DNA of 64,000 nt from contig QPGO01000053.1 in NCBI GenBank assembly GCA_008632985.1, positions 310,001 to 374,000 of the forward strand. The letters run 5' to 3'. This stretch comes from Psammoneis japonica (taxonomy: Eukaryota). Shown here in pieces: positions 24,235 to 58,610 of this stretch. Made by a program: the position numbers and the translations under genes. Positions within the stretch are counted from its first letter, which is position 1. Each line of letters begins with the position of its first letter. A model generated the notes under the pieces. The model saw only the letters and a list, made by a program, of their open reading frames with translations, did not search any database and was not told the DNA's origin.

Positions 24235-24591
24235 TATAACATACCAGTTGCAGATTTTACTGTTTGGTGTCAGCAGCACCTATTTTGGCTTGGACGCGTA
24301 GGAGTAGGACTATGGAGCGACGGTCAACAACGCATTTTTCGATACGCTCATTGCTTCCAGCTTCAAACCACGCACTCGAGCCACGCCGACATTTCTGGCA
24401 TTCGCGCGCGAAATTCTAGTACATAATATATATTCAATTTGTATAAACTTATACCGAATCATTACTAAAGCTACTGTAGAAATGTACATACGGCTCTCCC
24501 AGTATATTTCCACTAAATTATCAAATTTCTCCCTCCGACAACGCTTGCCGATTCTTCCAGCCCCGGCCGCAAAGAAGCAACAGCCGTCGTT

Positions 24592-31499: not shown

Positions 31500-33200
31500 T
31501 CAACTTGGGTGTGCATCTTTGGTTCGTTCTACGTGCAAACCTGACTGCTGTCTCTTAGCAAGCACAACACATTCACTTCCGTCGCCAAAGAAAAGACCAC
31601 CGGTGCCATCCACTCCTTCACATGCCGACTTGAAGGTCACAAGGCATTGAAAGAACTTGTCACAACATGTTCCAATGGGTTCCTTGATGGGGCTTGGGTT
31701 TGGAGATGGCATGGGAGAAAGCATTGGGTAAACGGGCAAATCATTGTTGTCAGCACATTCGCCACCGCGTCCCTGAAAGACTCCACTTGCATCCTCACAG
31801 TTTCCAGGCATCTTGCGCTCACATGTTCCACCAGCAAGAAGGCAGCAGGCACCTTTCCGAGGACAACCTGCACTTTCACAAGTCATGTCATTGCCTTTGC
31901 ACATTCCAGGCTGCAAGGTGCAATCTTCTTCTGAGAGAAGTTTGCATGATTTGTTTGTCTCTGAGTGGCACACCACAAGCTCCTTTCTTCTCTCAATGTT
32001 TTTGAGGGGTGTCAGAGAGGGCATGGCATTGTTGCATGTTGAGTGCTCACCAAGGAAGTGAGCTCCAGCCACACCATTGCAGCTTGACTCTGTGACTTTG
32101 TCAATGCACTCTCCTTCAGGATTGCAGCATGCTCCCGGGACCAGTGGGGTGCCTGTTGGGCTGGGGGGTTGTGGGATGGTGTGGGAAAAAGTGTCGGGCA
32201 AATGCAGGTGGGCAAATCATTCTGTTCTGCAGAAGACTGCACTCTCAATGGGGGAGGCACATGCCAAGGAGGAGATGGCAAGATGTTCAGTGATGATGTG
32301 TTTTGCCCCCAGGGACTGGAGCTTGCTGCTTTGCCAATGCAGCTTGTGAAAGGAAAACTTTGTTCATTTGGGAAACCAGCCCCCTCTTTTACAACTGCAG
32401 GAGGCATTGGAGAGGGAGCAGGAAAAGGGGCAGGAGACAGCATCAGGCAGATTGATGCCCTGTTGTCACCATTGCATCCACTGCTGTGGCCCTCAAAGAC
32501 TCCATTCATGGAGCTGCACATCTCAAAAGTCTTGTGCAGCCACAAACCCCATTGGCAATGCAACAGGCTCCTTTTCTTTGACAACCTGCAAGCTGGCACA
32601 ATGTGCCATCTCCTTGGCATGCTCCCCACCCAAAGTGCAATCTGCCTTGGAATGAAGCTTGCATCTGTTGCTTCTGAAGGGCAAGCAACAAGCTCCTTCT
32701 CTGGGATGCAGCACAGGAGAGGGCACAGGAGACTCATCTGGGAGGGTGTCCGGCAAATTTGTGACAACTCATTGTCATCCACATGTTCCCTGCTCCTGTG
32801 ACCCTGAAAAACTCCACTCCTCTGGTGCATTGCCCCAATGCAGTCTTCTCAAAAGTTCTGTCAGCAAGAAGACAGCCCACAATTTTCCTGGGGCAATGTG
32901 CAGTGTCATCTCCCTTGCATCCTTCACTTTGGCTTGAGAAGTGCAGTCTTTCTCTGAGAGAATGCCACACTTGTCAGCTCCAAATGGCAAACAGCATGTG
33001 CCCTCCATGTCCAAGGGAGGTCCCACCTTGGCAATTGTGATCACACTGTGGCAGCTCACAACTTCCTGGGCAACACCTCTGCACACCTTCATGCGTTGGG
33101 AGTGTTGCTGGTGCCAGGGACTGAACAGCATGTCCCATGTCACCACCAAACTTGATCTGATGCATCTCACTCTCCTTTTCTGCAGCTTTGCACAAAAACT
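31500..33200 (-). pseudogene. Degenerate paralog of the GACC-repeat protein
   Basis: GACC/GTCC repeats with Pro-rich linkers are scattered over several frames (e.g. GACCLPFRSNRC vs intact GACCLKFGDNRC). Lies inside the TpA-depleted domain. Confidence 0.8.
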
Positions 33201-36200
33201 CCCTTGTCAGGGGCTCAAACAGCTAAAACTGGGCAAAGGAACAGTGCCATGAAGTCAACATCCCAGCAGCTGTTTGTCCATGCACTCCAGCTTTCCTTTT
33301 CACCTCCTGGCAAGTGTGTGTCTTGCCCGTGGCATTTTTTGGACAGTTTGTGAGGCAGAAGAGAGTTGCAAAAAACAATGCATGGAAGTGGGGGTCATTG
33401 CACCACAGTTTTTTGTTGCCATCAACCCACAGGGCCCACTCTCCATGGCATGTGAGGTGCTGCAAAAGAGATGTTGACAATGACAGATGAAACTCTCATG
33501 AATTTTGCACACCACACACACCATGTGCAAAATGCTGCAAGAAGGAGGGAAAGAAACAAGGGGGGGGGGGGGGGGGGAGCACAAAGGTGCTGTGCAGCTG
33601 TGAACCCCACGGCAGTGAAACAAGGTTCATTGAGCATGATTTTTGGTGCAATTTTCAGCACCAGGCATTCTTTTGTCATCCTTGCCTGCCAGCCAGAGCT
33701 TGCATTTTTTTTGGCTTGTGTTGGCAACAAGCATTCATTGTGACAAATTGACAAAAATGTTCACTTTGTGCATGTCCCTGCACACACAAAGGTTTTCATT
33801 CAATTAGAGCAGGAAATGTGGCAGGCCAAATTGGTGCTCATGGGAGACTCACCACAGGCTGTGCAGACTGTGCACCTGGAGATGTTCCACTGCATGATGG
33901 CATGCAGCACAGATGCATTGGCACAGCACCTGAGGCTGCTCAAAAACACCTGGCTGCAGGCTTGAATTTTGTGTGCAGCAGATCTGTCACACTTGGTGTT
34001 TCACACTTGAGGGGAGGAGGAGCTCCCATCAGAGAGTGCTGCTGCTCACCCTGTGACAACACTCAGCTGACTTGGACACATCTCTTTCTCCCACTGGAGC
34101 ACAGTTGCAAGTGCAATGCAAGTGTGCAACAAACACAATTGACACGCCTTTTGGGAATGCACCACATTGAGGAATGAGTGGAAACTCTCATTGACTGCAA
34201 CTGAAATTGCCAGAGAATGTGCTGCCAATCAACCAACACCAAAAATGGCTCACTGACATGGCCTGCTCTCTGGACTGTCATTGTTGTGCAATGCAAGTTT
34301 GCAAGAAATGCAGGTGGTTGGCCCTTTGAAGGCACTGCATTGGGCAAAAAGTGGAAGCTGTTTTGTTGGCTGCGTCAAAGTGTGAAATTCTTTGTTTGCT
34401 GGAGCTGCCAAAAGCCCTGGTTTTTTAAGTGCAGAACTTGTCACTTTTGTTGACATGAAAGTTGGCAAGAAAGATTTCTTGGATGATCTGCTTCTGTCCC
34501 TTCCTGGTGCTGTCATTGAAAGACAGCCTTTGCATGATGCAAAGCTTTCAACTCAAGAAAACAAAAAAGTTAAAGCTCAAGCTGTGAGTGGCTGCAATCT
34601 CACACAGAAAAACTCTGATCTAAAAAATCACATGGCTTGACTTTGGCAGAGCATTGTGCATGACAGCCAAAGGAACAGTGAGTTTGAGATCATTGCAGCT
34701 CAAGGTTTGATTGTCAAGTTTGCCAGTTGAAATGAGCCCAGGGCCACTTTCATGGCAAAGAACTGGTGGGAGAAGAGCAGCAGTTGTGGCTTTGCTCAAT
34801 TGAAGTTTCAACTCAAGGTGTGTGACTTTTGTCACACTCAATCCACAGTGCGTGCATTGAGTGAGAAGTTTTGATGCAAACCATGATTTTTTCTTTGCCC
34901 AATGTGTTGTGCTCTCTTGTTTCTTGCAGCAAAGACACACAAGTGACATGCAAAGGAGGGGAGGGGGAACAAGCAAGCCAACTGGCAGGCAAGGAAAGTG
35001 TGTGTTGTGAGCTCATTGTTTTCACACTCAGAAGGTGAACTCCTCCAAGAGTTTTCTGTGCTTTTTGCTGGACCCGGCTTCTGTGTGGACATGACAAACC
35101 ACCTTGTTGGGCTCAACAAAGCTCAGCAGCAGACTCACCTTCAACACCACCAACTCCAAGAGCTTGAGAGTTTGCACAGCTTTCAGGCTTTGCTTTTGGA
35201 GGGTTCAAAGACTCCGAGAACAAATGTCCTCTGTCACAAGGCCACAGCAACAAGTCATGCTGTGCAGGTCAAGGAAAGCTTTTAGGGCCAGCCTGGCATC
35301 AATGCCTTTTGAGCACCACCTCTTGGTTGGTGTTTTGTTGTGGCCCCTGGCTCAACAAAGCTTGTCAATGGGGGCAACATGCTTCAGGAGCAGCAGCATC
35401 AATGAAGTGCAGCTGGTGGGTTGTTTGCAAGGTGTGCTTGAAGGGGCCAAAGCTTCTGGCACACATGTGCTCCAAGTTTGATGTGTGCCCTTGCTGCGGC
35501 ACATGGTGTTGGAGCAACTGAAGCTGATGGCAGAAGCAAGAATGACAGCTTTGTTGCTTGCCAACCCTGCAGCCTTTCCAAGTGGTCAAAAAGGTGTGCA
35601 CTGCCTGTCTTCAATGATGGCCCATTGTCACAGCTCTCTCTCAAATGTCAGCACAGCTTGCACACAGATGCAAGAAGCACAAGTGGCAGTTAGAGCAATG
35701 TCAGGCAGCAACAGTGCACAAAGCAGCAGTGCATCAGCTTGCTGCTCTGGAGCAGTGCCGGCACAACACAAGATGGAGGCTCTTGTTTTGGGTGCAGCAA
35801 GGCACTTTGCTTGTCAAGGACCATCAAAGCACTTTGCAAAAGCCCAAGGATTGAGGCTTTGTGCTGCAATTTTTGCAAAGGTTGCTGTGCCAGAAGGAGC
35901 AATGTCACCTTCTTGAGCAATGGAAGGGCTGTTGGCAGCTTGGTCAGAGGTGCTGCTGGAGGGAGCTGCAGCTGTTGCAGTTTCAGCCAGCATGAGTTGG
36001 GGGGCAAAGTGGCACCCTTGGAGAAGACTCTTTTTGGCAAAGTCAAAGTGCAGTTTTTTATGACTTGTGTTGGTGGGAAACTTCAAATTTTGGTCTTGTG
36101 ACACATCAAATCTCATTGCCATTTTTGCCTGCAGATTTTTTTTTATTTTGGGAAGCTGAGATTTCATGTTTGCTCACATTTTCAATTTGTGTGTGATGGT

Positions 36201-39200
36201 CTTTTTAATTTTAATTTCAAAAGAGACAATGTTTGTTTTGGAACAAACAAACTTCTCACCCAACATCTCTGGGCAAAGCTTGAGTGGCAACAGCATTTTG
36301 CAATCTTGTGCTCACTGCTGTGTGCTTTAATTGACCAGACACAACACCATTTTGTGACATGAACTTGTTCTTGCTGCTCAATTTCCATTGGCCAGCAGCA
36401 CAACTCCATGCAACAAATGCTTGCATTGCCATGAACAACTTGTGTCATCAACTGTCTCAAAGCTCCACAGCCAGATCAAGCTGTCCAGCGGCCCAAGTGC
36501 TGAGCTGGATGATGGCCACTTTGTAAAGACCACCCAAGACCTCCAGAGTCTCATGATGGACAAAAAACCTTCTGCAATGCCAAGAATGCTGGCTGCAAAG
36601 TCATGCTCCTGTTCAACTTTGTGCAGCCCAGGATCTTGAGACTGAGTGCAAAAATTGCCTTTTGAGGCCACTGGCAAATGAAGCTTGTGACAACTTCAAG
36701 ATGGGTGACATTGTGTGTTCCATCTGAGCTCCTAACAAAGCCACAAAATCACAGAGAATTGTGTCTCAAAATGACTGAAGTCAAGCTCAGACAAACATGG
36801 ACAACAACAGCAAATGTTCCAGTGGATGTTGCAGCAGCTTTCAAAAAAAACTTGTGGTTCTGCCATCAGATTCCTGCCCTCCTGGCAAGGACTGCACCAA
36901 GCTTGTGGCCAAAGCCCTGCATCTTGTCAAGATCATGATGCAGATGGGCTGTGGCTGCCCTGGCTGTAAAATGGGCTCTGCCATTGTGTGCAAAGTGCCC
37001 AGTGGAGTTGCCTTCTCTGAGCTCTTCAATCAACAAGCTTCGTCATTTGGGGGCCATGCAAGCAGCCGAAGGGAAAGTGTCATCTCTGCAACCCTGCCAA
37101 ATCTCCCAAGAGCTCTGCTCATGCTGACTGCTGTCCTGCCAAGACAAGTGGTGGGCCAGCTGCAGACAAAAAACTGGCCTGCCTTGTCCCCCCAAGCTCC
37201 CTTGAGAGCAGCCATGCTCCCAATGGTTGCAACTTGACCACCAAGCATGTGCTGTTGTGGGCATTGCCAGGAACACTGACATCCAATGCTGAACATTTTG
37301 AGTTTGCTTGCCCTGCATGCAAGAACCAAGCTGGCACAAAAATGGTCAAAAGAAGAAAGACCAAGACACTGGCAACTCCAACAAGGACACTCGCCCTCCA
37401 AGAAAGAGAAACCTTCCAAGCCTGTCTGGCATTTTGCCAACATTTTTTGTGACATGCTGACAAGAACAAATGCATGGTCTAGAAATGACTTGACAAGTGT
37501 GCCAACAGACAAAGAAAGTGGCAAAACTGGGACAAGCCAAAAGGGCCTTCAGCTGCTGAGTGGGCTGGTGCAAGCACCCTGCCAAGTCCAGCACAGGTGC
37601 TTTGACCAATTTTTCCATTGCGGGCCCTTTTTCAGGTGCTCCATTTGGGCTGCAGCAGTGCATGATCCTGGCCACTGCTTCAGCAAGCAAACTCCTGCAG
37701 ATCTGAGGCACTGAGCCCAAGCCCATCCCTTTCACAATGTCAGCTCCTTCTTTGACACACAGGGCTGCAAAAAGATGCCCTTGGACAATTGCTCAAGAAG
37801 CCAGCTTGCTGTTTTGACTCAGCCAAAAAGTTTCTGCCCCCAGAGCTTTTTTTTCTTTGACAAAAGTTGTTCCCCATGCTTCTTGGCTCTGTTGACACTG
37901 CTCCCTGGCAGGATCCTGGCCAGGCTGCACCTTCAAAATCTGCAGACAGAGTTGCTGCCCCCACCCAAGCCCCTCCCCTTGAGGCAGCACCCCTTGCCAC
38001 TGCTCCCCAAGCTCTGCTGAGTCTTGTGCATGGCCAGCACATGATGGGGAAGCACAAAATGAAGCTCCCACTTCTGTGCTTCCTGCACATCTGTTTGCCC
38101 CAATTCAGGTGGCTTGCCCTCCTTCCGTGAACCCTGCAACCATCATTGTTCTGCAATGTTGACACATCTTGCGCACAACAATCATCTGGATGTTGCCTGT
38201 GCTGCTGCCCATCAAGTCATCAGCAGGCTCTCATTTGCTCCCAAGGTCTCTCTCTCTCTCTTGCAATTGCCACTTGGAATGTTTTTTGTCATTTGAACCC
38301 ATGGACCAACATCTCAGCTGTCATGAAAGTGTGCATTTTGAGTTGCTGCTCCCCAGCATTGAAGACTGTGATGCACAACCCAACTTCTCTGTCAAGTCAC
38401 CAAGGGCACACCACTTCTTGTGCAGGACATCTGGCCATTGCATGGCCATCCAAGCTGTGGCCTCTTTTTGCACTTTCTGTGATGGAAGCCAAGCGTGTTG
38501 CTCTCTCTGAAGCAGCACACAGTCTCATTTCACTGTGCATGATTTTCAGCAAAGTTGGCGCACGCACTTCTTGTTCCTGCAGCTCAGCCATCAGAAAACA
38601 AGATCATTTCCCACACACCAACAGGCCCCCTTTCCCCCATGACAATGATGATGGGGCCAAATCTCAGCCCATTGTCTGTGCCAACTCACCTTCATCTGTT
38701 GTGCACGAGCGCGATGCTGCTTGTCTTCAACTTGCTTGTGAGCAAAAAACAAATGCCAGAGCCAAGCACACAGGCACTCCACACTGCTGGCTCTGTGCTG
38801 AAGCAGAGGCTTTGGCCCAACTGTCTCTGCTGCAAAGCCAGCAGACCAGCTCAATGAGGGACATGGGTTGGCAACTGCGCACCCCATTTTGGTTGAGAGG
38901 AAGAGTCGTGAGTCTGGCTTGCAGATGGGCAACTGCACTTGAAGTGTCGCACCAGCCAAATTGTCATGCACAATGCAAAGAGGAATCTCCTCACACTTTG
39001 AGTCATTGCAGTGCCTTGTTGTCTTCTGCTGCATCTGTCATCTGCTGTGCCACACTGCACAACCTCAAGAGGCACCTTGTCTTCCACATGAGTGCTGCAC
39101 AACCCGAGTGTCAAGAGATTCTCTCCCCCTGGGTTTCACATGGAGGTTTTTTCTTCTCCACAAAAGCACCAGCATGTGGCAAAGTGGAGGCCATAAGATG

Positions 39201-39290
39201 ATTCAGCTTTTCTCTTGCTGCACTGGCTGGAGTGTGCGACTGTGTTTCGGTTGAACACGAAGCGACAAGAAAATCCCACGAGCGGGCGGC
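31540..39290. other. TpA- and CpG-depleted hypermutated domain 1
   Basis: About 20 TA by eye in ~7.7 kb: one in 31741-33180 and none seen in ~37490-39190. Track ORFs are nearly Tyr-free and rich in Cys/His/Gln. Confidence 0.9.
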
Positions 39291-39594
39291 GGTAGCGTTC
39301 TTTGTCACGTCTGTGCGTTGGGAAGGATGCAGATAGAACGACGTCTTCATACACAAGACGAAGATCGAAAGCTGCTACGCAACAGTTACGACAGACTATG
39401 TCAATGCTGTTGGACATATTGTGCACAATACATGAACGCTTTAGTTACTGCTATATCCAAACTCCATAGACGGCATCTTCTTCAAAGCCAGCTCGGACAG
39501 CAGCGGGAGACTGAACACAGATGCACTTGCAGCAATAGAATATCGACTTCAACGCTTCGCCGTCTTCTCTTGCGGCAGGTTATTCGCTACTCTC

Positions 39595-41695
39595 CTAACA
39601 GGAAATGCCTTTGTCACTGCAAGTTGTGCCGCGACCCTTGAAGTTTCCTTTTATTCTGTCGCATGCCGACTTTTGGATCTTAAGACAATTTCCATTCTTG
39701 CAGCAGGCTCCATTCCTTGGACAAATTTCATTCTCACACGTCGTGGCATCTCCTCGATAATCCCCAGCACATTTCGACGCTGTACGGAGTTCGCATCTGT
39801 TATCTCCGAACTTCAAACAGCAAGCTCCCTTATTGGGGTCCACTGGCTGTGGAGGAGGAGGGGGAGTGGGAGGTGCCGTTTGACGCTTGTCACTCCCAGG
39901 GCATTCAATACTCTCACAACTCGTTCCAAAGCCCTGAAATTTGCCACTGAGCCGATCAATGCACCTGTTTCTTTTCTGATTAGGGACACAAATTCCTGAC
40001 TCTCGGCAGCATCCGCCCCTCTCACTGCAGCGGGCTGATACGCAGGTCTGAAACAGCAAAACGCAGGAGCGAGTGGCGTTTAGGATCAGAATCATTCAAA
40101 CAATATCATATTCGACAATTCTTACCTTTCCAGCCTGGAATATTCCATCCAACTTTTCACACGAGCCCTCCGTGACATCTTTGCATTCTCTCCTGTTAAC
40201 AACAAGCGATCATTACAAGACGTTCCGCTTAAGAAGCACTTAAAGGAATAAACAAAATGATGTATGCAGATAATCGATACGTACTTGTACTTCAAGCAGC
40301 ATGCTCCAGGTGGGTCGCAAATTCCAGCGCTGCACTCGGTGCCAAAACCCTTGAAGTCACCTGAAGATCATTCAATAAACGAGAAACAAAGTTTGAGAAC
40401 ATAAGTAGTGACACAGAGCCGCATCCTTCTGTGGTTATGAAAGCACTCACCTCCGCACCACTTCTTCTTGATTTTATTGCACACTTTCTTTCCTTTCACA
40501 GTCGTGCAGCAAGCACCTTTCAGTGGGCATGTCTTTTCATCACAGGTTGTGCCCTACAGACAATATTAGAAAGATACACGACACAGAGGTAAATTGAGAT
40601 GAAAGACTTCCAAATGAAGCCAGACTCACTGCCGGTAAAACAACGACGGCAACTTACAGGTCCTAGGTAGACGCCCGTCTTACAGAATTTTGGCTTGATA
40701 ACGTCACAGTTTCCGCCCTCTAAGTCACAGCAGGCACCGCGAGGATTGCATTTCTTATTGGCAGGCTGGGGAACAAGAGCACGACGAACATCAGTTCACA
40801 GACGGTTTCAAAAACGAAGAATGAAATCATATTGTGGGAGGGACTAACTTACACATTCGGTTTTGGAACCCGTGAAAAAACCTCCCTTGTCATCGCAGAC
40901 CTTCCTTCTTAGCACAGCGCAAGATGCATCAAGCAAGCAGCAGGCGCCTTCTTGGCAATCGCCACACGTCGTACCCTCGCCCGCGAAATCGCCTAAATAT
41001 TTGAAATGGACACGAGTGTTATCAGAGGGATGCAAACGAGACGTAGTCACTAAAACATTACTCATTACTGACGTACCTTTCTTTTTGTCACACTCAAACT
41101 TCCTCGCTAGGAAGCATTGTCCGTCTGGATCGGGATCGCAACATCCCCCATAAGCTTCTGGGCATCTGTCGGCACGACAGGTGATTCCATCTCCAAGATA
41201 TGCGCCGCCTATAGAATCGCAACTGCTTTCGTCGAGCCACGTGCAAACCGGTGGATTTGCAGATGGTTGACAACACCCTCCCTTAGGAGGGTCAGTATTC
41301 TGAAACATGTAAAGATAAACAGAAGCAATGAGAATGCAAAAACAGTGAACGAAAACAGTTGAAGCGTTTGGATTCGCATACCGTCAGGATCCGCTGAGAC
41401 CCAGCCTTTGATAGAAGAAGTGAAATTACAGAGTAGAAAATGTGAGAACAGGAAATAAAATCATGCTATCATCGTGATAGTTGCTAATTCACTCTTACGT
41501 ACGTTGGAAGAGGCACCGTCCTTTGGTCCGTACTCCGCCGACACGTCTGAGGAAGAACACAGCGTAGGAAAGCAAATTCGTGAGCCATTCCTGTCTACTC
41601 GAAACAAGTGGCGCCAACATTAAACGTTTCATACCTGTCGCCTCGCAAAGAGCAAACGCAACCAAGAGCAAAAGACCGTTGTAATTGAATTTCAT
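39595..41695 (-). CDS. Secreted cysteine-rich protein with tandem G(A/G)CC repeats, 10 exons
   Basis: Signal peptide MKFNYNGLLLLVAFALCEA. Nine GT-AG introns splice into one frame (…ASSN|AGSQRILT|NTDPPKGGCC…). Repeats GACC-x5-8-C-x7-C-…G.(Y/F).G.GTTC. Stop TAG at 39595. Confidence 0.85.
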
Positions 41696-43026
41696 CTTTG
41701 TCTTCGACTCGATACTTGTTACTAATCTTACGAAATTCTTTTTTGTGAGATGGATTCCGGGGCGCCACGATCAACACAAGATTGTGACGCGAATTGTCGT
41801 AGTGCGGTTGTGCCGAGAGAGAGTCTTTTGGTGGTCACGAACCACCTCATATATTAAATGATATTAGTCCCTATGCACTTGCGTAGCTTTTCTTCTTTTT
41901 GATTAATGACTGTTCTTTTAAAAATGATTTGTCGCTATCAGAAGTCATAGTCATATGATCAATTATAGACATCCATTACATAAGTCATAGATTTTATCGG
42001 ATTTCAAAGCAGTATGGTGTAGTCATACTATAAATGTTGCTCCACATTTATACTCTAGCAGGTCATCATCCGGCTTACTTAGTTGCTAGCTTGCAGAGTT
42101 TTCTTCGAGACTTTTCGTTATTGGTCAGATCACTCATCCATGTCCTTTCGGCGCAGAATCCTGTGGTTTTTGTACTGGAAATAAAAACAATTATTGCTAG
42201 TGACCGAATGACCATGGCATCTGATGCGACGACTCATTCGACGAGCTCGTGTGCACGCTCGGGAAACGCACACGCCCACACAAGTGGAATCATGGATTCC
42301 TCCTCCTTGATTTGTTTCCATGCAAGGCTTCCTCAATGCACTCCGCTTCAAACAGTGTGCTCTCCAGGATTTGGGTGCAACAGGAAGGTGTCTCTTGATT
42401 GGGAGCTGAAGTGCTGAGCTGCTGTGGTCTGTGGTGTGACAGCGAGGTGGATGACCGGATGGCGTGTCCATCGACGACAACTTTGGGCCCATCAAAGGGG
42501 CGAAAAAGGTGGCATGAATCACAGATCATTGCCCCCCGCACTGAGCCATTGTGTGCACATCTTCATTCATTGGGTGGACCCCTTGCTGATTAAATGACAC
42601 GGCCACTTGTTGGAATCTCACCTTTTTTGTTTGTTTGCACGGTGCCCGCGTTTGTCCTTCATCTGATTGTTGCCCACAGACACTGTGGTGTTTTTTTTGT
42701 GTCCCCACTTCAACCAAACAATTGACGCACCTGACTGGCACATGTTTGTGGATGTTCCAGCATTTTCATTGTGTGCTCTCTTTCTTCATTTGCACTCAGC
42801 GACATTTCCAATTTCCAGTCGCAAGCTGGGCATTTGATGTGTTCGTGTTGTTTGATGACACAACACATTTTGGTGGCAGCATGAATGGCAGTGTGATCAT
42901 GAACACATGCTGTGCATTGAGTGAACTGAATCACGTTGAAAACACTTTGTCTTTCTTGTGATCATTTCACGGCAATTTTGCCATGTCAATTTTTGCTCAC
43001 TTCATTTTTTTCCGAAATCGACACAG

Positions 43027-43286
43027 GGCCTGTTCCAGCTCCAGGTGCTCCTCGCGGGTTCGATTCCCATCATTTGGAAATTTGTGCATTTGGCACAATT
43101 GACTTTTTCCAAATCCGTTTTTTGCCAAATCAAAGGGCAAGTGCACACTTTACATGTGTTTTCGGGTGTGCACTCACCTTTCGATTTTCGAAACGATCAA
43201 AATTGAAGGAGTTGATTGCGCTAAACTGCGCAGAAAATCGGCCTCTCGAGTGATGAAAAGCAGAGCACCTGGAGCTGGAGCAGGCC
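43027..43286. mobile_element. MITE-like element, 260 bp with 24-bp terminal inverted repeats
   Basis: ggcctgttccagctccaggtgctc (43027-43050) vs gagcacctggagctggagcaggcc (43263-43286), 23/24 match. No clear TSD. Confidence 0.75.
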
Positions 43287-43479
43287 ATTGGGGAATTCAC
43301 GCAGCCTCACTCAGCCTCCATGGCCCTTTTTCCTTGTGACCATGTGTCTGATTGCATCACCTCCACCATCCCACATTGCATGAGACAAGTCCGTTGATGC
43401 CGTTGTCTCCGCTGATGATTGTTCCAAAGACTGCAATAGCAGCGTTTGTCTTGACACTTCTTCACGTGATGACACACAT

Positions 43480-47410: not shown

Positions 47411-48919
47411 GATGTGCACGCCAAAAAAGCAGTCATGCTTCTTGGTGCGTGCACATGCTGGAGTTTTGCGGCTCACCCACTTGCACATGTTTGGTCTCAC
47501 CAACCCCAAACTCACCACGCAGCTTGCAAACACCTTCTCCATGCTGTTGACAGTTGTTGCCATGTGAGCAAATGCAAAAGCCAAAAACAAGTGAGCACAA
47601 GACCCGCAACTCAACCCAAGCTGCAAATGCAATTTTGCTGTGTTGTCCATGAATCTGTGCAGATGTTTTGTCTCCATTTTCTTTGTGGTGAACTTTGAGC
47701 AGCTCCTCTCTTTTTTGTCTTTTGTGTGCTGGAAACAAGTCCACAACATGCAGTGTGCACAAGCAGGGACTGAGTTGTCCTGATGCCACCAGCACAGTTT
47801 TCGCTGCCTTTTGCTGCACAGAACAGCAAGTGGCTGCTCTGGCTGGAGCTGCCGGTCACAACTCTCCCAGAACTCGGTGTTCTGGTGGCGGGTGGTTGAA
47901 GAGCATCTCACTTGGCAGGCAGGAGTGGAGCTTGTCCTTTCTTGTGCACAAACAAATGAGCTGAGTGACAATGATCCCAGAAACATCAACACAAGAAATC
48001 ATGCATGTCCCAACCTTGTCCCAACATTTAAATTGGTTTTTGCTGCATGGCAAGGTTCAAGCAGCTGCTTTCCAATCAACCAATCACCTGCTTCAACTTG
48101 TTGCAGTCTCCTCAAAACACAGGATCCAAACCACAGGGAACACACATGAAATTGCCTGCCAAAACATGCATCACACCAACAAATCATTGCCATCTTCAGC
48201 AGGGTGGACAAGGGCAATGATGAGTTGAAAGGGAGTTGTCATGGTGCTCAGGAGATTTCTCCATCTGCCGTTGTTGTTGCATTTTGGTCCACACAAATCC
48301 CTGCACCAATCTTCCCCTGATCAAATTTCAACAAAACGCGGTGAGCAGAAGTTGACAGGGTGAAATTCTCACAGAAGTCTCATGGAAAGGACAAAAATGT
48401 TGCAACGGAGGTCGCTTCATGCAACGGACACAGTGGGTTTGTGGGAGCTCACCCTCTGTCAACATTCACTTGGACTTCGCCAAAGCCAGAACAAGTTGAC
48501 AGCCAGAAAATTCATGCAGAAGTGTCACAGAGAGGACAAACAAATGCAATGTAAGTTGCTTCACTCAACGGACCAAGTGAGTTCATGGTCGCCTCACTCT
48601 TTGCACTGCCCTGACAGCTGAGCATGTGAACATCACATCCAACGTGAAAACATCAAATGCAAAAAATTTGTTGACATTTTTGAAAAATTGCTGAACGGAA
48701 ACATTTGGGGCAACAATCAAATGCAACTGCAAAGATTTGAGTGAGATGGTGCCGGGCTGGCTCGGCTGTTGTTGCATTTAAGTCGGAATGTGAAAAATGA
48801 ACAATTTTTGTCATGGGGCAATGATCGTGTGAAGGCTAAATAAAAACATGGTGTGAAAATAAAAAAGGTCAACTGCCAACAAGTGAGTGTGCATTTTAAT
48901 CAGCAATGTGCCGACGCAA

Positions 48920-50420
48920 TGGGCAAGCCATGTGCAGGGGTTATGAGTCCCAAAAAACAGGGTTTGGGCCAATTTCTGGCACAAGTTCCATGTGGCAAAT
49001 TCACGCAGAACATCTTGTTCATCGTGCTTTTCTCCCATGCTTTGCAAAAAATGGGCCACAACATCAAAGAATTGACTTCAGTCAGAACAGCTGACACTTT
49101 GCGTGCTTGCTTTTTGACAACAAACACGATGATTTCCATCATTCTGTGAAGCTCCACAATTGGAAAATGTTCGCCGTGGTGGGCCCGCAATGAAGTGTTG
49201 ATCACCAAAATTCTGAAAACAGAATTTTGAAGTGTTTGTGCACAGAGGCGTGTCACTCATGCAAAAGTCATCAGGCAAAGTGTCAATGGTTTCAGGGGAA
49301 AAGGATTCCTTGAGGTGCTGGCCGTTCACGGCAGAAGCACGAGAAAAAAAATCAGCTCAAACCCTGACTTTCATGTTTTTTTTTTGCACAAAATTTCTGC
49401 ATGATTTTTGCACCACAGTGCACATGGCTCATCCAAGAGTGCACTCACTGGGTCAAAGCCCCAAACAATGACCTGCAACCAATGCACTCTTTTTTGCCTC
49501 TCTGACATCATGCACCAATCGTGGATGCGGACGAAGGTCAGAATGACCACCACACAGAGTTGACTGGAAGCCAAAAATTGCAAATTGATCCCATGATGTG
49601 ATGTTGACACACAAGGTGTCAATGTCAATCACATCCAGACAATCTGTTGTCACAGTCTTGTTTGCTGATGGGCCTTTTGTCCTGTGGGACTGGTGCAATT
49701 GCTTTGGGCCATTGAGAGCTCATTCGGAGAAACCCAGAACGATTGACTGGAATTTGTTCTCATGATTTTCGCTTTTCGTGTTTTGTTCCACTTTCGTTTG
49801 CACTCAATCTTCAAGCACAGTGCAGTCTTGCCACTGTCCAAGGCAGTGAACATGGATGTCAACAACAACTGATGTCAATGTTTTGCTGTTTCTGTCACAG
49901 GTGCAGCGCTGACAAGCCATGTGCAGGGGTTGTGAGTCCCGAAAAACAGGGTTGGGCTGATTTCTGGTGCAAAACTCACATAGAAAATTCGCGCAGAATG
50001 TCTTGTTCATCGTGCTTTTCCTGTGCTTTACGAAAAATGGGCCATGACCTCAAGGAATTGATTTCAGTCACAATGGCTGACACTTTGCGCACTTGCTTTT
50101 TGATGACAAACACGACGATGTCCACCACTCAGCAAAATTCCATCATTGGAAAATGTTTGCCGTGGTGGGACCGCAGTGAAGTGTTGATCGAATTTCTGAA
50201 AATGGAGCTTTGAAGTGTTCACGCACAGAATCGTGTTGCTCATGTTAAAATCATCATGCAAAGTGTCAATGGTTTCAGGGGAAAACGATTCCTTGAGGCG
50301 TCAGTGGAGCAGAGAAGCACGGCAGAAGCATGAGAAAAAATCGGCCCAAACCCCAATTTTCACAATTTTTTCTGCACAGAATTTCCACGTGATTTTTGCA
50401 CCAGTGCACATGGCTTGTTC
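48920..50420 (+). repeat. Diverged ~500-bp direct duplication (48920-49430 and 49910-50420)
   Basis: Collinear from caagccatgtgcaggggt to gatttttgcacca…gtgcacatggct. Differences are dominated by TG/CA swaps. Confidence 0.9.
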
Positions 50421-50448
50421 TGCGGGCGCATGCACGTGCAGAAAATCT

Positions 50449-50571
50449 GGGGTGACACCCAAAAACAGGGGGTCTGGTGCCCGTTCTGCATCAGCTGCCA
50501 TTGGATGCGGGGTGACGCCCAAAAACAGGGGATCTGGTGCCCGTTCTGCATCAATTGCCATTGGGTGCGGG
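50449..50571 (+). repeat. Tandem repeat, 2 x 60 bp
   Basis: ggggtgac(a/g)cccaaaaacagggg(g/a)tctggtgcccgttctgcatca… repeated with period 60. Confidence 0.9.
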
Positions 50572-51125
50572 ACGTTAAACCCCTTCCAATCACAGATTCG
50601 CAACCAACCAGTCATGATGAGATGCAAAAGGATGTCTGCTTCTAAATGAACCTGTTGAGTTTTGCCACTCGAACGGCTGTCGCTAAAGTGAAAATCCGGG
50701 TGCTGCACCCGGGCGCGGCCGAACTGAACAATGTGCAGCGGCAAAATTGTGCTCTCACCACAAAAGAAATTTGTGCTCTCACCACAATGTAGAAATGTGC
50801 CAGGCACCACATAGAAGAAAAAGCACTGTCAATGGATGAGGAATCTCGACCGAGCCCTCCGACGACACAACACTCTCGAGGTCATTGCTTGCCGTCTCCG
50901 CAAAGATTTTGTGCTTTTGGGAGAGACTCTCAATGCACTGCATGCATTGCTCTAAGCCATGTGATTCTTGGAGTTGCAACGTGGAGTTGCTTTGTGCATG
51001 GATTGAAGCCCAGAGTTGTCCACAGGCAGAGCATTTCCTGACATGAGCTTGTTCCATTTGTCATTCTTGTCACATTTCTGCGGCAACTGTTCCATCAAAA
51101 AAGAAGGCAACTGTGGAATCTGACT

Positions 51126-54100
51126 GTGTCTCATGACATTTCTCTGCAGGGAAGAGACAGCGACGGCGATGGTGATGATTTGTTCAACACCATGCTTCGC
51201 GATCTCGATGATGCTGATGGCAGACACGAGGCAGCTCACAGCAACAACGAAACTGCTGTTGACCTCACCGCATCAGAAAGTGACGATGACGTCGCCTCGG
51301 CAGCTGTGGGGCGAGTGAAGGACCCTCGTGACCATGTGCACGACTCTGGCATGGCTGTCGACCTCACCACAACCAGCTCATCAGAAAGTGACGGAGACAA
51401 TGGATGGTCCATGAATGATGGCATCGCCTCAGCAGATGCGGGTCAAGTCAAGGACCCTCGTGACCGTGCGCACGACTCTGGCATGGCATCCGCAGCACGC
51501 AAGCATGGTTGCATGTCCAAGGAATCAGAAATGTTGGTTGCTCATGGTTGTTTCTGTTTCTCTTGTTTCATTTTATTTTCAGCAGCTGTGGTTTCATTGC
51601 CAGTGGGCAACATTGCATCCAGCACACCGGCTCCTTTGTCAATGCAACCTGCTCCTGTGTCTCAATCGCCACCTGAACGCCGCAAGAAGAAAGCTCCAGA
51701 ATCCCGTTCCAATGGCAGGGATGGCAGTGGAGACTGGTTCCCATTGTGGTCTGCTCCGTCATCAGACTCGGCGATGCAGCATTCAAAAATGCCTTCCGCG
51801 TCTGAAAAGCATGTCATCGAATTGTGGAATGCTCCAGATGGATTTAAGTTCCTTGTCAACTCGTCAGTGTCAAATGTGGTCATAAAATGCTGGGACTGCG
51901 CCGACCATGGATGCTCGGTGCAGGTGAAGATTGAGCGTTCCGGCTCAACACTTGTCAAAGAGCAACGAGGAGCACACAACCACCCCCCGCCCGCAGGAGG
52001 AATGCCTGCAAATGCAACAAACCCGCCATTGCCACGGCCTGCCCCAGCACGCAAGTGGCCAGCAAATGTGGAGCTCTCGGACTGCCTTTTGCAGCATGCG
52101 GCAAACATGGAACAAAACACACTCGAACAGCATGGCTTGGAGGATGAAGCCATGCTGGATCAAAAGATGCGTCCTGTGAAAGCCTTGCGCGCCGCCGCTC
52201 CCAATGTTGGGAATGCAAGTGTGCCGCCAACTTTCAATTTGCCGCATGCTCCAAAAATGATCTGACGATTTTTTCCTTTCTTTTTGCAATGGGCAAATTG
52301 TCAAATTTGAGGAGTCATGCTCCATTCTCTGAAAATGTTTGCTGCTGTACACAATGAAGGCCAGCGAGGGAGAATGCGAGTGCAGCATCAGCCGTGCTTC
52401 TAGGCCGTGTGGCATTGGACGCCACAACATTGAAGGTGTCGGTAAATGGACTGCCAAGCTCATGGTGGAGTGCAAGCATTTTCAATCTCTCTGTTGTACG
52501 ATGTGGCTTTCTCAGTCATGCTGCAGTTGCAAGGAATGACGTGCTTCAATTGTCACTGCTGGAGAGTGTTGGAACAGCCACACAATCAACCTCAACATTG
52601 TCACTGGCATGGTGATTGTTTGCATTGGCGTCACCAGCACAATGGTGGATCACTGGCATTGTGGGTGCATGCACCTGTCATTCGCATCGGCGCTGCCTGC
52701 ACATCGCCTCCAGCAGAGCACAATCTAGAAACTGATGTGTGCTTGTTAGTCAGATCATGGCATGTGACAACAGCATCGAGCGCAACTGCAACATGTTGAA
52801 AAAACCATCGTTGCCGATGTCGATCATGCTCCGTGTGTGGAGACGAGTGCGATTGTGGTGTGGATCACCAACCGTGATGTTTCACTCCATGGCGTTTGTC
52901 ACGATCCGTGGCATGATCACGATCCGTGTGCATGCCGCCCTGCATGGCAGTGACTGCTGCAGTCTGCAAATGAAACAGCAAGTTACTTCTTTCCTCTGGT
53001 TCTTAGAACATTTGCATCTATGATGATTCAAGACAATGATGACGCAGACTCGCCGCCACCCAATCTGGAGGGTTGGCGTTTAGCGCGTTTTCTTCCTTCA
53101 CCCACTTCTGGTTCATGTGGCACCACAACAGATGATGAGAAACACATTGTTGAGACACTGCAGCGGATTGAGAATGACGGACTGCATGGCATCCATCAGG
53201 GTCAACAGAACAACAGGCTGTGCTCGTTGATTTGCCAATCTCCAAATTGTCATGTTGGTGCCAGGATCCAGCGCTTTCCAGGGAAGCTCGGCATGCATTT
53301 GCCGGAGGGACAGCATCACAAGCAACATGATGAAACACTGGCCAAGGGCCTCAAGAAACCAGCATTGCGACAGGTGCAAGAAAAACCGCACATGAGTCGG
53401 GCGCAGCTGTGTGATCACCTGAAAGGGTTGGGGTCGCACAACAAGTCGAAGTCAAAAGAAAAGCAACCTCAAATCCATTGCAAATGCAATGAGAGCAAAG
53501 GGAGCAACAAAGCAATTTGTTGATGGTGGCACATTTGACAACCTGGAGGAGCTAAAACTGTCCCTCGATTCACGTCGCCAATCCATTGACGAGTTTCTAG
53601 CCGGAAGGAATGAAGCGGAGCCTTCTGTTGCAAGACTGCCTGCAATGAAGGCGGAAGACCCACTGCGAAACATTGCAGTTCTTGATCATGACGTTGATGA
53701 TGGCACTGACGGGCTGCATCAAGATTGGTCTCACATCATTTTTGCATTTCCAAGTGCTCGAATGGTGCTTGAGAATGTGCAACAGCTTTGGAAGACCGGG
53801 AAGGTGCAACTTGAGATGGACCATGCAAAAGGTTTTTGGGACAATGATCTTCGTCAACTTGGCATGGTGGGAATCAGTGACGCCAACAGAATGTTTTTTC
53901 CGCTCGTCGTTGGCATTCAAAAGGCAGAAGACAGTGATGGCAGTGCTGCCATTCTGCTTCGTTCAACAGAAATGACATTGAAGAGTTGAGGAATGCCGTG
54001 CACATGCCTGAAAGATGGTTCCCTGGCACTGGCCAATGGCGCCAATCAGGTGCAGTTGACTGACATGGATTGCTGGGCTCACTTTGTCCGGGTGCCATTT

Positions 54101-56334
54101 GCACGGGGCGGAGGTTGTCGCGGCTCCAAAGGATCCTTCTCCTGGCACATGCTTGAGCAGAAGTTCCCAATGGAGTTCGTGTTTGGTGTTCTTTCTTGCT
54201 TTTTTGCTTTCTCGCACCTCACCACAGCACACAACTGGGTGATGGCAAGAAGACTGTACAAGGATGAAAACCCTGAGCTTCCGGACCACTTCTGCGCACA
54301 GCACCCACCACTTTTCCCTGGATTTGGGTCAGCATGTCATGAGCCAGGGGAGGCACAATCGGGCCAGGGACTTGAAAGAACTTGGGGGCACCTAAAAGAC
54401 CAAAAGAGAGACTGTGACAAAACAAATAAAACGGCCGACATTGAGTCAATCTTTGAAGCCACATCAAGGTGGGAGGAAACGCATGCCGAAGATGCCTTTG
54501 CTGCCGAGCCAACAACACCAAAATCCGGGTGGGATGTCATTGCGAATTGCCACAGAAAGGATGCCGGCATCGATTTCAAGAGCTGCGCACACTGCTCGTT
54601 AGAGACCTGCCAGCCATTGACGCGCCAGGAAGCAATCAGAAAATCAGCGATCGTTGGTGGATGCGTGGTGCACATGCCAACCTTCCACTTCTGTTCAGCG
54701 TGGAAGGAACAAGCCATTGACCGGATGGTTGGTGTGGATGATTCGACAGGGGGATTGACAATTGAGCAAATCACCATACAACAAGAAGCCAAGAAGAAAA
54801 TGAATCAAGCATGCACATCCGCTAGACCCACTCCAGTCAAGTCTGCGTTCATGGAGATTGTTGGCACCCACCTTCTAAACAACACGCTGTCACCTCTTGA
54901 AGGGGAAGACTGCCGTTCATTCCTGTTGCGACGGTCTCAGCACTTCATTTCAGTGAATCAAATGGGGTTACATGGAAAGAAGAACCAAGGCAAGAAAAGA
55001 GGAAGAAAGGTGAGACGAGTGATCACGAATTAGATTTGGAAAACAAAAAGTGGGAAGCTGACGCTGGGGCAGAATTTGAGAGCAACTTGCAAAGAGAACT
55101 GCCAAAGGATGCAAACAAGGATGCTGAAGAGGAATCAAGAGCTCGTGCATTGTTGTCTGAATTAAAAGAGTCGGCGCAACAGATGCCGATGGTTCAACCG
55201 TCTCGTGACGCCAACCGTGACTCGGTTTCGACAAAGCCAAGGCACCACAGGCTGTGCAGCCGGGCTTGCGGACACTTCAAGGAAACAACCGTTCGAGCAG
55301 GAGTGCACGCTTTGTGCAATTGTGAAGTGTTCATGAGAAATGGTTGGTGTTGCGACACCCTCATCCACAACTCAGTGGAGCTCGGGGAAACACCACCAGC
55401 AAAATGCCGCGATGCCGACGGCGTCGGTTGGGACAACATCAGAATTGGATGGACAAGACAGTTGATGAGCACCGTGTTTGGTGGAGAAGGGGAAAAGAAC
55501 AATGCAGCAAACATGCACAAGACTCACTTTCCAGCAGTTGATCTGCTCTTTCACTTCCAATCTGTTGTTGAAGCTGTGCCGGTTCCATGGATGGCAGACA
55601 TTGACACCAAGGAGCCAAAAACCCTGGGCATCACAACAGCTCGCAATGCTCACACAAACCAAGCATGCGTTGCATCAGTTCAGCCAAATTCAAAGGGAAG
55701 AGCAATTGTGGACGATGTCACAGTGGGGGTGAACGGAGTTGCTGTTGTGTTGCAGGACGATGGATCCCTTCTGGCGGGGCACAAGCTGGATTGCATTGTT
55801 GACATGATCAATCGCTGCAAGGAAGAGAGTCGCATTGTTAGATTCGATGTGCTGCGCAAGCACAGGAAGGGGCAAGAAGGGCAAACGCATGGCTTGCCGC
55901 ACAGTTGGAAGTTTTCAAAAAGTTGTTTGCAAAAGAGATGGGGCTGAAAATGGCCACGCGATTCACGTTGAGCGAAGGCAACAAGGGCATGGGAACAGGT
56001 CTTTTTTGCGACAGCAAAGGGGGGTGAGCTTGCACCCAGGCCTGGGTTCATTTCGGAATCTCCATCCGGCATGGTCAGGTTCCTGGGACTGCAAAAAGGA
56101 AGAACCCCCGATGGAGATGTTGGCGGCAAGTTCCATGACGCTGTGATGCAACTGAGGAAACGTTTCAACTTTCAGCCCCTCGATTGCTCTCATGGTCGAA
56201 ACTGCACCCTCGTTGACGGAGAGGACAATGAGGAAAAGCCACTCATTGTTGATCTTGAGCACTGGAAAGATCTTTCCAAGAGGAAACAGTTTGGAAAGAC
56301 TAAACTTCCGTGGTGTCCATTAGGATTTCTATGA
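51126..56334 (+). mobile_element. Mutator/MULE transposon relic (WRKY-like Zn finger, DDE transposase, SWIM)
   Basis: CADHGC…GAHNH zinc finger. LEMDHAKGF, CLKDGSLAL, DCWAHF (CxxH) and GLERTWGHLK give the MULE D-D-E layout. LCNCEVFMRNGWCC is SWIM-like. Interrupted by stops and frameshifts. Confidence 0.72.
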
Positions 56335-56499
56335 CAATGGCACCAGAGTCTAAATGGAGCTGCTGAATTTGAAGTCAGCATTGGCAAAGTGTCTCACAGA
56401 GGTTGCGTGCGCAAAAGAAGTGCGACGGCGTGATTTTGAATTCTTCGTTGTTGTTTTTTTCTCACTCCCAACATGTTGTCAAAATGCAACAGCACAGCT

Positions 56500-57560
56500 C
56501 TGTATGTCTTGTCATGTTTCACCACAATCCGTCGTCGTTTTGGCAAGAACAAGAACACAGCAGCCAGGTGACAAGGCAGCAGTGATGGATTCAATGACAA
56601 AACCCGCCTCTTGCGCAAGCTCGCTCCATTCACGCTTGGTCCGTGCTCGCTCACAACCCAGCAACAGGTGCAAAACATCCACGCACAGTTGTAGATTGTT
56701 GCTTCCAGAGGCATTGCTGGGCAACACGGCTTCACCTGTTGCAATCTTGCCATCTTGTGGCAAGGCAGCATGACAAGATTTGAGAATGTCAATGGATTTT
56801 TGTTCGCTCCACATGCACTCATCAAGAACATGTTTCATGAAAATGGCATTGCACCCTGGAATGGTGGATGAATCAAACACACGTCACCAGCAATCAGCTC
56901 GACCATGTCATTTGCAGAAGCGGGTGCCGACTCCACCACCTCAGCAAGATCAAGGCATTTGCACTTGACTTTGGGAATTTGCAAGCACTGTGGCATCCAC
57001 CGACATTGACAACCATCTTGCCCGAGAGTTGATTCCAAACAAATCCTTTCAACACAGCCTCAACCTTGCCGTTGTGACATGAATCACCACCAATCCAAGG
57101 GTGTGCGCTGTTTGTCTGCAAAGACTTTGAGCAACAGCATCAATGGCTGAACTGTTTCGCCAAACTCAGAGGAAACCACCAATTTAAAGATGATCCAGTG
57201 TGCTGGGGTGAGATTCTTTCATGCTTTTGAACAACTCAAGGGTTGGCTGGAGATGATGTGAAGGAGGTCAACAAGCACATGATTGCCTCTGGTTGGGCCA
57301 AATGAAAGTGAGGACATTCCAAGCAATGCAGCCCATGCTGTTGTCGCCAAACTTGACAGGACGAATGACGTCAGCAAATGACAGCATTTTCAAGAAAGAG
57401 CTGGAAGGAGCACACTCAACACCACTTGCACAGCCACCTTTCCAGCAACCCACACTGCTGTCCTCCAAGCAAGCAACCTCAAGCAGAAAAAGCAGAACAC
57501 CAGGCACAAGCATGTCAGCCTTCAAGATGAGAGCTGTCCAAGGACATTTTGTTTGCAGCC
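56500..57560 (-). pseudogene. COMT-type O-methyltransferase pseudogene
   Basis: Fragments across frames: KMVVNVGG, CLDLAEVVESAP…ELIAGD, FDSSTIPGCNAIFMKHVL…WSEQKSIDILKSCHAALPQDGKI…EAVLP and RARTKREWSELAQEAGF. Confidence 0.8.
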
Positions 57561-58149: not shown

Positions 58150-58610
58150 TCATAAAATCGCCAACTCGATTGCAGTCCTGTTTGCAGCTCGATTGCGGAC
58201 TGCGATCGAAACGACTGCAATCTGCTGATTGTTTGTCTGGCGCTGGTCACAAAGATCGCAGTCGTGTTCGCGATCGATCGCGATCGATTCGTGTCTAAAA
58301 TTCAGTCGTGAATCGGGATTTTCATCGCACACGGGACTAAAAATTGACCGAAAGGTGGCACACATTCACGAAAAATGCGTCCTTGCGCAGAGGGCGCCCC
58401 TGCGTGGGGCGCGCGAATTCCGCGCGGTGGCCCAATCACGATCGCGATTGCAGTCGATTGTCACACGTGGCAAGCGCGCGCGCATTGCGATCTTTTGATT
58501 GCTGCGAAGCCGCGTGCAATCGATGGTTGCAATCCGTGATTGTTGGGAGAAAGTTGACGATTTTGTGACACTGCATGCAAGGCATTGCAGCTGAAGATTG
58601 CAGTCATCAG
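58150..58610. repeat. CpG-rich array of cgatcg/cgattgca-type motifs around a GC hairpin
   Basis: Many cgatcg, cgattgcag and cgactgcaatc units in both orientations. Hairpin gcgcccc-tgcgt-ggggcgc at ~58394-58412. Confidence 0.65.

Follow-up and report, generated by a model that had tools for sequence, protein, structure and literature searches.

To our knowledge, all point-mutation defences against mobile DNA so far described, namely repeat-induced point mutation (RIP), RIP-like CpG hypermutation and APOBEC editing, deaminate cytosine. Here we analyse 64,000 nucleotides of the genome of the diatom Psammoneis japonica (GenBank assembly GCA_008632985.1, contig QPGO01000053.1, positions 310,001 to 374,000 of the forward strand; this whole stretch is hereafter the window, and coordinates are positions within it), in which two sharp-edged domains have been almost emptied of TpA dinucleotides. 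We consider it likely that a DNA-level, strand-symmetric transition hypermutation rewrote TpA to CpA or TpG in resident transposon-derived DNA, and that this process was distinct from the decay of CpG seen in the same domains.

Among described systems, RIP, known from Neurospora, from further fungi and, as a RIP-like process that targets CpG, from basidiomycetes, resembles this locus in its confinement to repeats and mobile DNA, its restriction to transitions, its sharp edges, its wrecked reading frames, its strong dinucleotide signature and perhaps in the separate mutation of each copy. However, RIP makes C to T changes, mainly from CpA to TpA, and as such gains TpA and lowers GC content, whereas here, in a diatom host and at constant GC content, TpA is destroyed by T to C or A to G transitions, preferentially in an R-T-A context (R, purine; Y, pyrimidine). 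The RID-type enzyme of RIP cannot perform the T to C chemistry seen here. Decay of methylated CpG likewise converts CG to TG or CA independently of flanking bases, to an extent that differs from block to block and within transposon domains, but it leaves TpA alone. APOBEC and ADAR hyper-editing is also an enzyme-driven, context-dependent hypermutation of mobile elements, but acts on single-stranded or RNA substrates with strand bias and in other contexts, and lacks the symmetric, near-complete loss of one dinucleotide from resident DNA.

A thymine mark on transposons is found in a related supergroup, in the form of 5-hydroxymethyluracil (5hmU) and base J, associated with TET/JBP enzymes in dinoflagellates and kinetoplastids. 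In the available part of one report, 5hmU marks transposons in a dinoflagellate, with older work cited there for a TA/TC preference (PMC11572971); that part describes 5hmU as a silencing mark, with no report of mutational erosion of TpA. The pattern described here is a mutational footprint, specific to TpA and confined to repeats, and such a footprint does not in itself amount to a modification. For diatoms, the available sections of two further reports give 84% CpG methylation of transposons in T. rotula (PMC11842555), and place the DNMT4 enzymes, which occur in many diatoms and are given no known function, in a group with the RIP factor RID (PMC9998398). A full-text literature search, which did not extend to most subscription journals and is no proof of absence, turned up no account of repeats hypermutated specifically at TpA.

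Results

GC content is 47-50% across the whole window. Over the gene-rich stretches (1-31.5 kb and 39.3-42.2 kb), the observed/expected ratios (o/e) of TA, CG and TG/CA are 0.58, 0.99 and 1.13, whereas in the two domains (31.6-39.3 kb, and 42.2 kb to the end of the window) that of TA is 0.04-0.10, with TG/CA at 1.6-1.8, AA undepleted (o/e 1.2-1.3) and GC content at 0.47-0.50. The gain of TpA and loss of GC that mark RIP are therefore not what is found. Domain 1 (31601-39300) has 2.6 TA per kb, compared with 40 outside, a TG/CA o/e of 1.82, and a CG o/e of 0.07 over 31901-39200. An initial annotation of this DNA had described domain 1 as having lost both dinucleotides, and between 32000 and 39000 only 17 TA (o/e 0.04) and 29 CG (o/e 0.07) are left. 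Domain 2 (42199-64000), which continues past the window end, has 4.2 TA per kb throughout. The island between the two domains (39301-42198) is of normal composition (TA o/e 0.61, CG o/e 0.98), with a very TA-rich last 400 bp. Likelihood segmentation assigns a single TA state to 42201-64000, whereas CG falls into seven blocks, one in domain 1 (o/e 0.07) and six in domain 2 (o/e 0.34, 0.65, 0.30, 1.61, 0.21 and 0.75). In the block at 50200-56400, which carries the transposase relic considered below, 37 TA (o/e 0.10) are present against ~219 expected at the normal o/e of 0.58 (Poisson P 2e-52), and 252 CG are retained (o/e 0.64). The initial count of about 30 TA in about 5.4 kb of this block was accurate, with exactly 30 TA and 218 CG in 51000-56400, and both of the strings quoted with it are present, at 51161 and 55414. 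Domain 1 (32000-39000) also has a surplus of the GC dinucleotide (o/e 1.38) and a shortfall of AT (o/e 0.71).

When TA survival is expressed as a fraction of the level in normal DNA, each of the 28 one-kb sub-windows within the domains falls in the range 0-0.29, whereas CG survival over the same 28 ranges from 0.02 to 0.89. Survival in the transposase block is ~0.16 for TA and ~0.66 for CG, and per-site TA loss there was at least 4 times faster than CG loss, this being a lower bound because TA sits at its floor. TA survival follows the flanking bases, at 0.30 for YTAR, 0.075 for RTAR, 0.049 for YTAY and 0.017 for RTAY (chi-square P 1e-23), and the order is the same in both domains. A two-rate, strand-wise model with kt of 0.60 for T after a pyrimidine and 2.18 for T after a purine predicts 0.013 for RTAY, where 0.017 is observed. 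Conversion was ~3.6 times faster on the strand with a purine before T (R-T-A to R-C-A, equivalent to T-A-Y to T-G-Y on the opposite strand). Consistent with this rule, the gained CA is mostly RCA (+27 per kb, compared with +12 for YCA) and the gained TG mostly TGY (+24 compared with +10). In contrast, CG survival is flat over four flank classes (0.36-0.47, P 0.14), which is the flank-independent, domain-limited conversion of CG to TG/CA that characterises decay of 5-methylcytosine (5mC).

Segmentation places the TA and CG edges 100-300 bp apart. A flank rule for TA only, together with these offset edges, indicates that TA conversion was faster than, and separate from, CpG decay; the initial annotation had proposed as much, and the uniformly low TA survival, with one TA state set against the varied CG blocks, upholds it. 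CpG decay is best regarded as a second process, being slower, without a flank rule and slightly narrower in its footprint. Residual TA and residual CG are weakly correlated across the 28 sub-windows (Spearman 0.43, P 0.02), and the CpG-poorest blocks are also the TA-poorest (o/e 0.04, compared with 0.09 in the block of the transposase relic). That the fewest TAs stand in the CpG-poorest blocks suggests continued action rather than one burst.

The edge of domain 2 at 42.2 kb is a step. There are 38 TA in 41700-42198 (76 per kb), the final one at 42198, followed by 392 bp free of TA. CG persists beyond this point, as had been noticed at the outset, with 0 TA but 11 CG (54 per kb) in 42199-42400, and 2 TA and 27 CG in 42401-43200. 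The 400 bp just outside (41801-42200) have 85 TA per kb, twice the normal density; the domain 2 element adjoins, or is inserted in, an AT-rich spacer, and no leakage of TA erasure occurs there. Domain 1 shows this lag too, its left TA edge lying at ~31600 and the switch of CG state ~300 bp further in, at ~31900. The same signature is seen in an isolated 410-bp island within gene-rich normal DNA (15536-15945), with 3 TA (o/e 0.15, Poisson P 0.004), 7 CG (o/e 0.22, P 1e-7), TG o/e 1.74 and CA o/e 1.75, which suggests that the process is able to strike a small isolated insert.

Four lines of evidence give the nature and direction of the change. The first is a balance of pyrimidine-purine steps, of which normal DNA has 237 per kb, domain 1 has 234 and domain 2 has 244. 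TA and CG together make up 96 of these steps per kb in normal DNA but 6.7 in domain 1 and 31.6 in domain 2, while TG and CA together make up 141, 227 and 213, respectively. As the total is conserved, the lost TA and CG reappear as TG and CA. The second line is strand symmetry, as TG equals CA in every domain, which speaks strongly against strand-specific editing of RNA or of a single-stranded intermediate.

The third line comes from the transposase relic at 52954-55944 (+), which comprises three overlapping frame pieces (52954-53520, 53423-55030 and 54901-55944) with one in-frame TGA at 53987. Its protein family has 94 representatives in the database; among these, the intact homologue P0150 is closest to the relic, at 47% identity (E 1e-135; 419 of 910 positions identical). 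Opposite the 21 tyrosines of P0150 in these 910 aligned positions, the relic has histidine at 9, cysteine at 5, phenylalanine at 4, other residues at 3 and tyrosine at none, so that a TAY codon is kept at 0 of the 21; the reverse changes, from histidine or cysteine to tyrosine, number 0. Isoleucine to threonine (ATA to ACA) occurs 6 times and its reverse 0 times. In total, the relic has 1 tyrosine against 21 in P0150, 42 histidines against 25 and 31 cysteines against 16. Replacement of tyrosine by histidine or cysteine without the reverse indicates that TAY codons were turned into CAY or TGY. Changes of the CpG type are nearly balanced, with 5 from arginine to glutamine against 6 in reverse, and 3 from arginine to histidine against 1.

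The fourth line is a direct repeat, the only sizeable internal repeat, with copies at 48922-49434 (+; 11 CG, 1 TA) and 49911-50420 (+; 18 CG, 3 TA) that are 80% identical in nucleotides and 93% identical in a purine/pyrimidine alphabet. The copies differ by 68 transitions, 46 of them inside pyrimidine-purine steps, and 20 transversions. At 16 of the 111 aligned pyrimidine-purine steps one copy has CA and the other TG, where chance transitions at adjacent positions, given a transition rate of 13.5%, would produce ~2; a further 11 steps are CG in one copy and CA or TG in the other, and 3 are TA against TG. The CA-versus-TG discordance implies that TA and CG were still present when the copies separated, and were then resolved independently, on either strand.

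The initial annotation had called the relic a Mutator-like element (MULE). This label, which places it in the IS256/MULE superfamily, is a reasonable one in view of a predicted fold, while Pfam finds nothing: the 5 relic open reading frames (ORFs) match no family at E <= 10, including MULE (PF10551) and Transposase_mut (PF00872), and 35 of the 94 homologues match none at E <= 0.01. A sequence profile likewise had 0 matches among PDB chains. The predicted structure of another family member (P0152, pLDDT 78) is closest in the PDB to the ISCth4 transposase (6xg8_A, E 7e-4); four ISCth4 entries rank at the top (E 7e-4 to 6e-3, over ~265-277 aligned columns, with TM only 0.24-0.32) and retroviral integrases rank after them. 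We take ISCth4 to be a solved IS256-family transposase related to eukaryotic Mutator elements and MULEs, and the predicted fold would fit the RNase H-like DDE fold of Mutator/IS256 transposases. ESM Atlas neighbours carry MULE and SWIM (score 0.77), which is a lead only, and CxC...CxxxxH-like strings are readable in the translations, where Pfam calls neither a SWIM-type zinc finger nor a WRKY/FAR1-type N-terminal DNA-binding domain. A word-indexed protein search with the relic gave only 3 matches, at 44-47% identity, and no close paralogues, and none of 177 pattern matches to the transposase alignment in metagenome contigs was confirmed.

A MULE would be expected to have long terminal inverted repeats and a target duplication of 9-11 bp. 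Next to the block of the relic, an inverted repeat of ~400 bp, with its left arm at 42487-42888 (+) and its right arm at 48601-49000 (-), bounds an element of ~6.5 kb (42.5-49.0 kb); its local alignment in the purine/pyrimidine alphabet scores 317, compared with 220 +/- 13 in 200 shuffles, and a nucleotide seed (42568-42632 against 48857-48921) is 75% complementary. Alignment of repeats against shuffles found no element ends for the relic's own block (49.7-56.7 kb), no inverted or direct repeats above shuffles at the ends of domain 1, and none above shuffles between 42.2-42.7 or 49.4-50.5 kb and 56.3-57.3 kb.

The long frames attributed to the relic block by the initial annotation are real, but are inflated by the loss of TA. 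The longest ORFs of the block are 407, 348 and 347 aa, and their sum of 1102 (559 +/- 74 in dinucleotide-preserving shuffles) was reached in 0 of 200 such shuffles. However, the longest ORF in shuffled sequence of the block is itself 214 +/- 41 aa, compared with 162 aa in normal DNA, because TAA and TAG need TA. As TA loss takes out two of the three stop codons, long frames are weak evidence of youth. The 407-aa frame lies upstream of the transposase relic (51042-52262, +), contains a 132-bp internal duplication and has no Pfam match.

Domain 2 also contains an O-methyltransferase pseudogene fragment (56515-56883, -; Pfam Methyltransf_2, E 3.5e-13), stops breaking the upstream continuation of its frame. 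This is the sole Pfam match among 141 domain ORFs, and in domain 1 none of the 48 ORFs of at least 90 aa was matched. Its presence means either that non-transposon sequence was also struck or that it had been captured by an element.

A CpG island at 58201-58600, still TA-poor, has a CG o/e of 1.61 (112 CG and 5 TA per kb) and could be either the terminus of an element or a promoter that is protected. It is made of GATCGCGATCG-like and GCGCGC strings, and its few TAs are all YTAA. The suggestion of the initial annotation that CpG level could date each insertion is plausible, because the CG blocks are internally uniform, but this island implies that CpG level may reflect protection rather than age. 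Surviving CG shows only faint, unconvincing bumps near 200, 400 and 580 bp when examined for periodicity on the nucleosome scale.

Contigs of a public sequencing run (X1) reproduce 38000-42631, a stretch that crosses out of domain 1 at its right edge, runs through the normal island and passes the left edge of domain 2, and also 54062-57233 with one gap, in both cases with 0 other letters and at a word depth of ~65. Exact 31-letter words at this depth argue against a base-calling artefact. Depth is flat at ~65 over 38000-39333, where domain 1 is single-copy at >=85% identity, whereas summed X1 contig depth in domain 2 is in the hundreds at its lowest and 14154 at its highest, so that a large part of this domain is multi-copy. 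For RIP, which acts on duplicated DNA, the evidence is divided: much of domain 2 and the discordant repeat pair are duplicated, but neither this stretch of domain 1 nor the O-methyltransferase relic has a second copy at >=85% identity. Between the paralogous contigs and the window there are 583 transitions and 164 transversions. A second run from the same sample (X2) yields a paralogous contig, ~91% identical over 50856-52516 and at a depth of ~55, which covers the 407-aa frame; X2 covers almost nothing else of the 20 kb compared. A palindromic element at 43027-43290, whose arms pair around 43088-43226, has a summed X1 word depth of ~14000 and is a very high-copy repeat. It includes a tRNA T-loop-like string near 43.06 kb, although ARAGORN finds 0 tRNA genes in 42-64 kb, and a 25-letter word from it had 0 matches in metagenome contigs.

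Eukaryotic genes are found among the remaining ORFs of the window, one of them for a plastid cytochrome-assembly factor (CCB2_CCB4) and another for a SUN-domain protein with nothing closer than 37%. A CAAX-protease-like ORF stands between two paralogous genes for pyridoxal phosphate-dependent dehydratases (20646-21659 and 23260-24279, both -), which share 68.5% nucleotide identity. The best named relatives of a dehydratase ORF are from diatoms (Odontella, Grammatophora and Thalassiosira, 56-66% identity), and the closest relatives outside diatoms are bacterial threo-3-hydroxy-aspartate ammonia-lyases (55-60% identity). At 24592-28438 (-), adjacent frames with AMP-binding, carrier-protein and type III polyketide synthase (chalcone-synthase-like) domains may form a fused loading-module/type III polyketide synthase gene. 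An ORF with a bacterial-type RmuC domain (7531-8346, -; E 4e-26) lies amid the eukaryotic genes.

Discussion

In the mechanism that we propose, the TpA process would be confined to inserted or silenced DNA with step-like edges, and its rewriting would be nearly complete in every block regardless of CpG level. CpG would decay to TpG or CpA in the same domains, more slowly, independently of flanks and over a slightly narrower footprint, presumably through deamination of 5mC on methylated transposons. Loss of TpA, on account of its speed and specificity, would need an enzyme, and we favour one that works on silenced chromatin, modifying either the thymine or the adenine of TpA. Its chemistry could be that of TET/JBP enzymes, with thymine oxidised to 5-hydroxymethyl- or 5-formyl-uracil, of which 5-formyl-uracil mispairs with G; this would be akin to the 5hmU mark of dinoflagellate transposons. 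It could also be a deamination of adenine at T-A-Y; both fit, and sequence cannot separate them. Targeting would depend on sequence, by way of homology or small RNA, and not on the spread of heterochromatin, because the edges are steps, the TA-rich flank is untouched and a lone 0.4-kb island was struck. We lean somewhat towards action that is ongoing or repeated rather than a single burst.

The alternatives differ in how much of this evidence they can accommodate. A RIP-like single burst, in which duplicates detected by homology, perhaps before meiosis, were struck once or a few times at TpA and CpG decayed later on the methylated relic, is doubtful. It would explain the step edges, the independent mutation of both repeat copies and the all-or-none state of TA, which is intermediate in 0 of the 28 sub-windows, and the grouping of diatom DNMT4 with RID, as given in the available sections of PMC9998398, also counts for it. 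However, after a single burst TA should creep back, whereas the CpG-poorest blocks have less TA than the transposase block, and neither domain 1, as far as covered at 38000-39333, nor the O-methyltransferase pseudogene has a second copy at >=85% identity; moreover, a C5-methyltransferase-type enzyme is incapable of T to C or A to G changes. We regard as unlikely the proposal that a single machinery acted on two substrates, recognising symmetric pyrimidine-purine steps that bear a 5-methyl group on both strands, with TpA always a substrate and CpG one only when methylated. TpA loss would then run ahead on account of this constant availability and not through a process of its own. A 5-methylpyrimidine dioxygenase might act in this way, as might an editor guided by a methyl reader, driving both dinucleotides to CA/TG, and the TET/JBP family does act on both thymine and 5mC according to the available part of PMC11572971. 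Shared products and domains, the conserved pyrimidine-purine total and the correlation of residual TA with residual CG are all as such a machinery would leave them, but the restriction of the flank rule to TA and the distance between TA and CG edges are not, and at 58.2 kb a CpG island is untouched while TA is gone, although absent methylation there would explain this.

Editing of RNA or of a single-stranded intermediate by an ADAR- or APOBEC-type enzyme, copied back during transposition, is most improbable. An A after U or T is a favoured ADAR context, which counts for it. Known enzyme-driven hypermutation of mobile elements works in this way, as far as the available part of PMC4866542 describes it, but such editing is strand-specific, whereas TG equals CA and both outcomes occur within one element. 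Furthermore, the best-identified element is the relic of a cut-and-paste DNA transposon, the repeat pair places the changes after the copies were in place, and AA is not depleted. ADAR-type adenosine-to-inosine hyper-editing in particular was rejected, the strand-specific clusters of A to G changes being absent and TG being equal to CA in each domain. GC-biased conversion was also rejected, since GC content is steady and TA alone is lost among the A/T dinucleotides. The pattern is extreme, and modified bases can mislead some base-callers, so that an artefact of sequencing or assembly might be suspected, or else a selective avoidance of TA by the elements themselves; we consider either very improbable. 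The 31-letter words are exact at a depth of ~65 in X1 across the edges, and the changes from tyrosine to histidine or cysteine, the in-frame stops and the tyrosine-free relic are damage rather than adaptation, while the independent CA-versus-TG outcomes in the duplicates fit neither artefact nor avoidance.

Several points weigh against a separate, repeated TpA hypermutation as we propose it. The window contains no candidate enzyme, and no gene of the TET/JBP type is found among its ORFs. No block of intermediate TA exists among the 28 sub-windows, which an all-or-none burst would fit too, and the weak correlation of TA with CG, together with their common domains and products, means that the two losses are not fully independent. 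The change from R-T-A to R-C-A accounts only in part for the skew of GC and AT dinucleotides in domain 1. Direct evidence of independent resolution comes from the only such repeat pair in the window, and the ancestral TA and CG content of most blocks is assumed to equal that of the window's normal DNA. X1 is possibly the assembly's own data, although a chemistry artefact is very unlikely.

We see the chances as evenly balanced that the locus records a natural DNA base-editing defence with a new chemistry, in which guided T to C or A to G changes at R-T-A/T-A-Y, within limits sharp to the base pair, would remove all tyrosine codons and most TpA in a short time and so inactivate transposons, without AT-enrichment and independently of cytosine methylation. 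We put the odds that the underlying enzymology is of an undescribed kind at even as well. A practical warning follows for annotation, as long open frames in TA-depleted regions are no proof of intact genes. If our reading is correct, tyrosine-free relics rich in cysteine and histidine, with spuriously long ORFs, would explain how such elements have escaped homology-based annotation, and the two losses would provide two clocks of unequal speed for the dating of insertions. It could also lead to an enzyme that occurs in nature and converts T to C or A to G within double-stranded DNA, and such an enzyme would be of interest for base editing. A targeted, dinucleotide-specific and sharply bounded A:T to G:C process would constitute a new branch of genome defence, and it would sit in an ecologically dominant group of algae whose DNMT4/RID-like enzymes and possible thymine modifications lack an assigned role.

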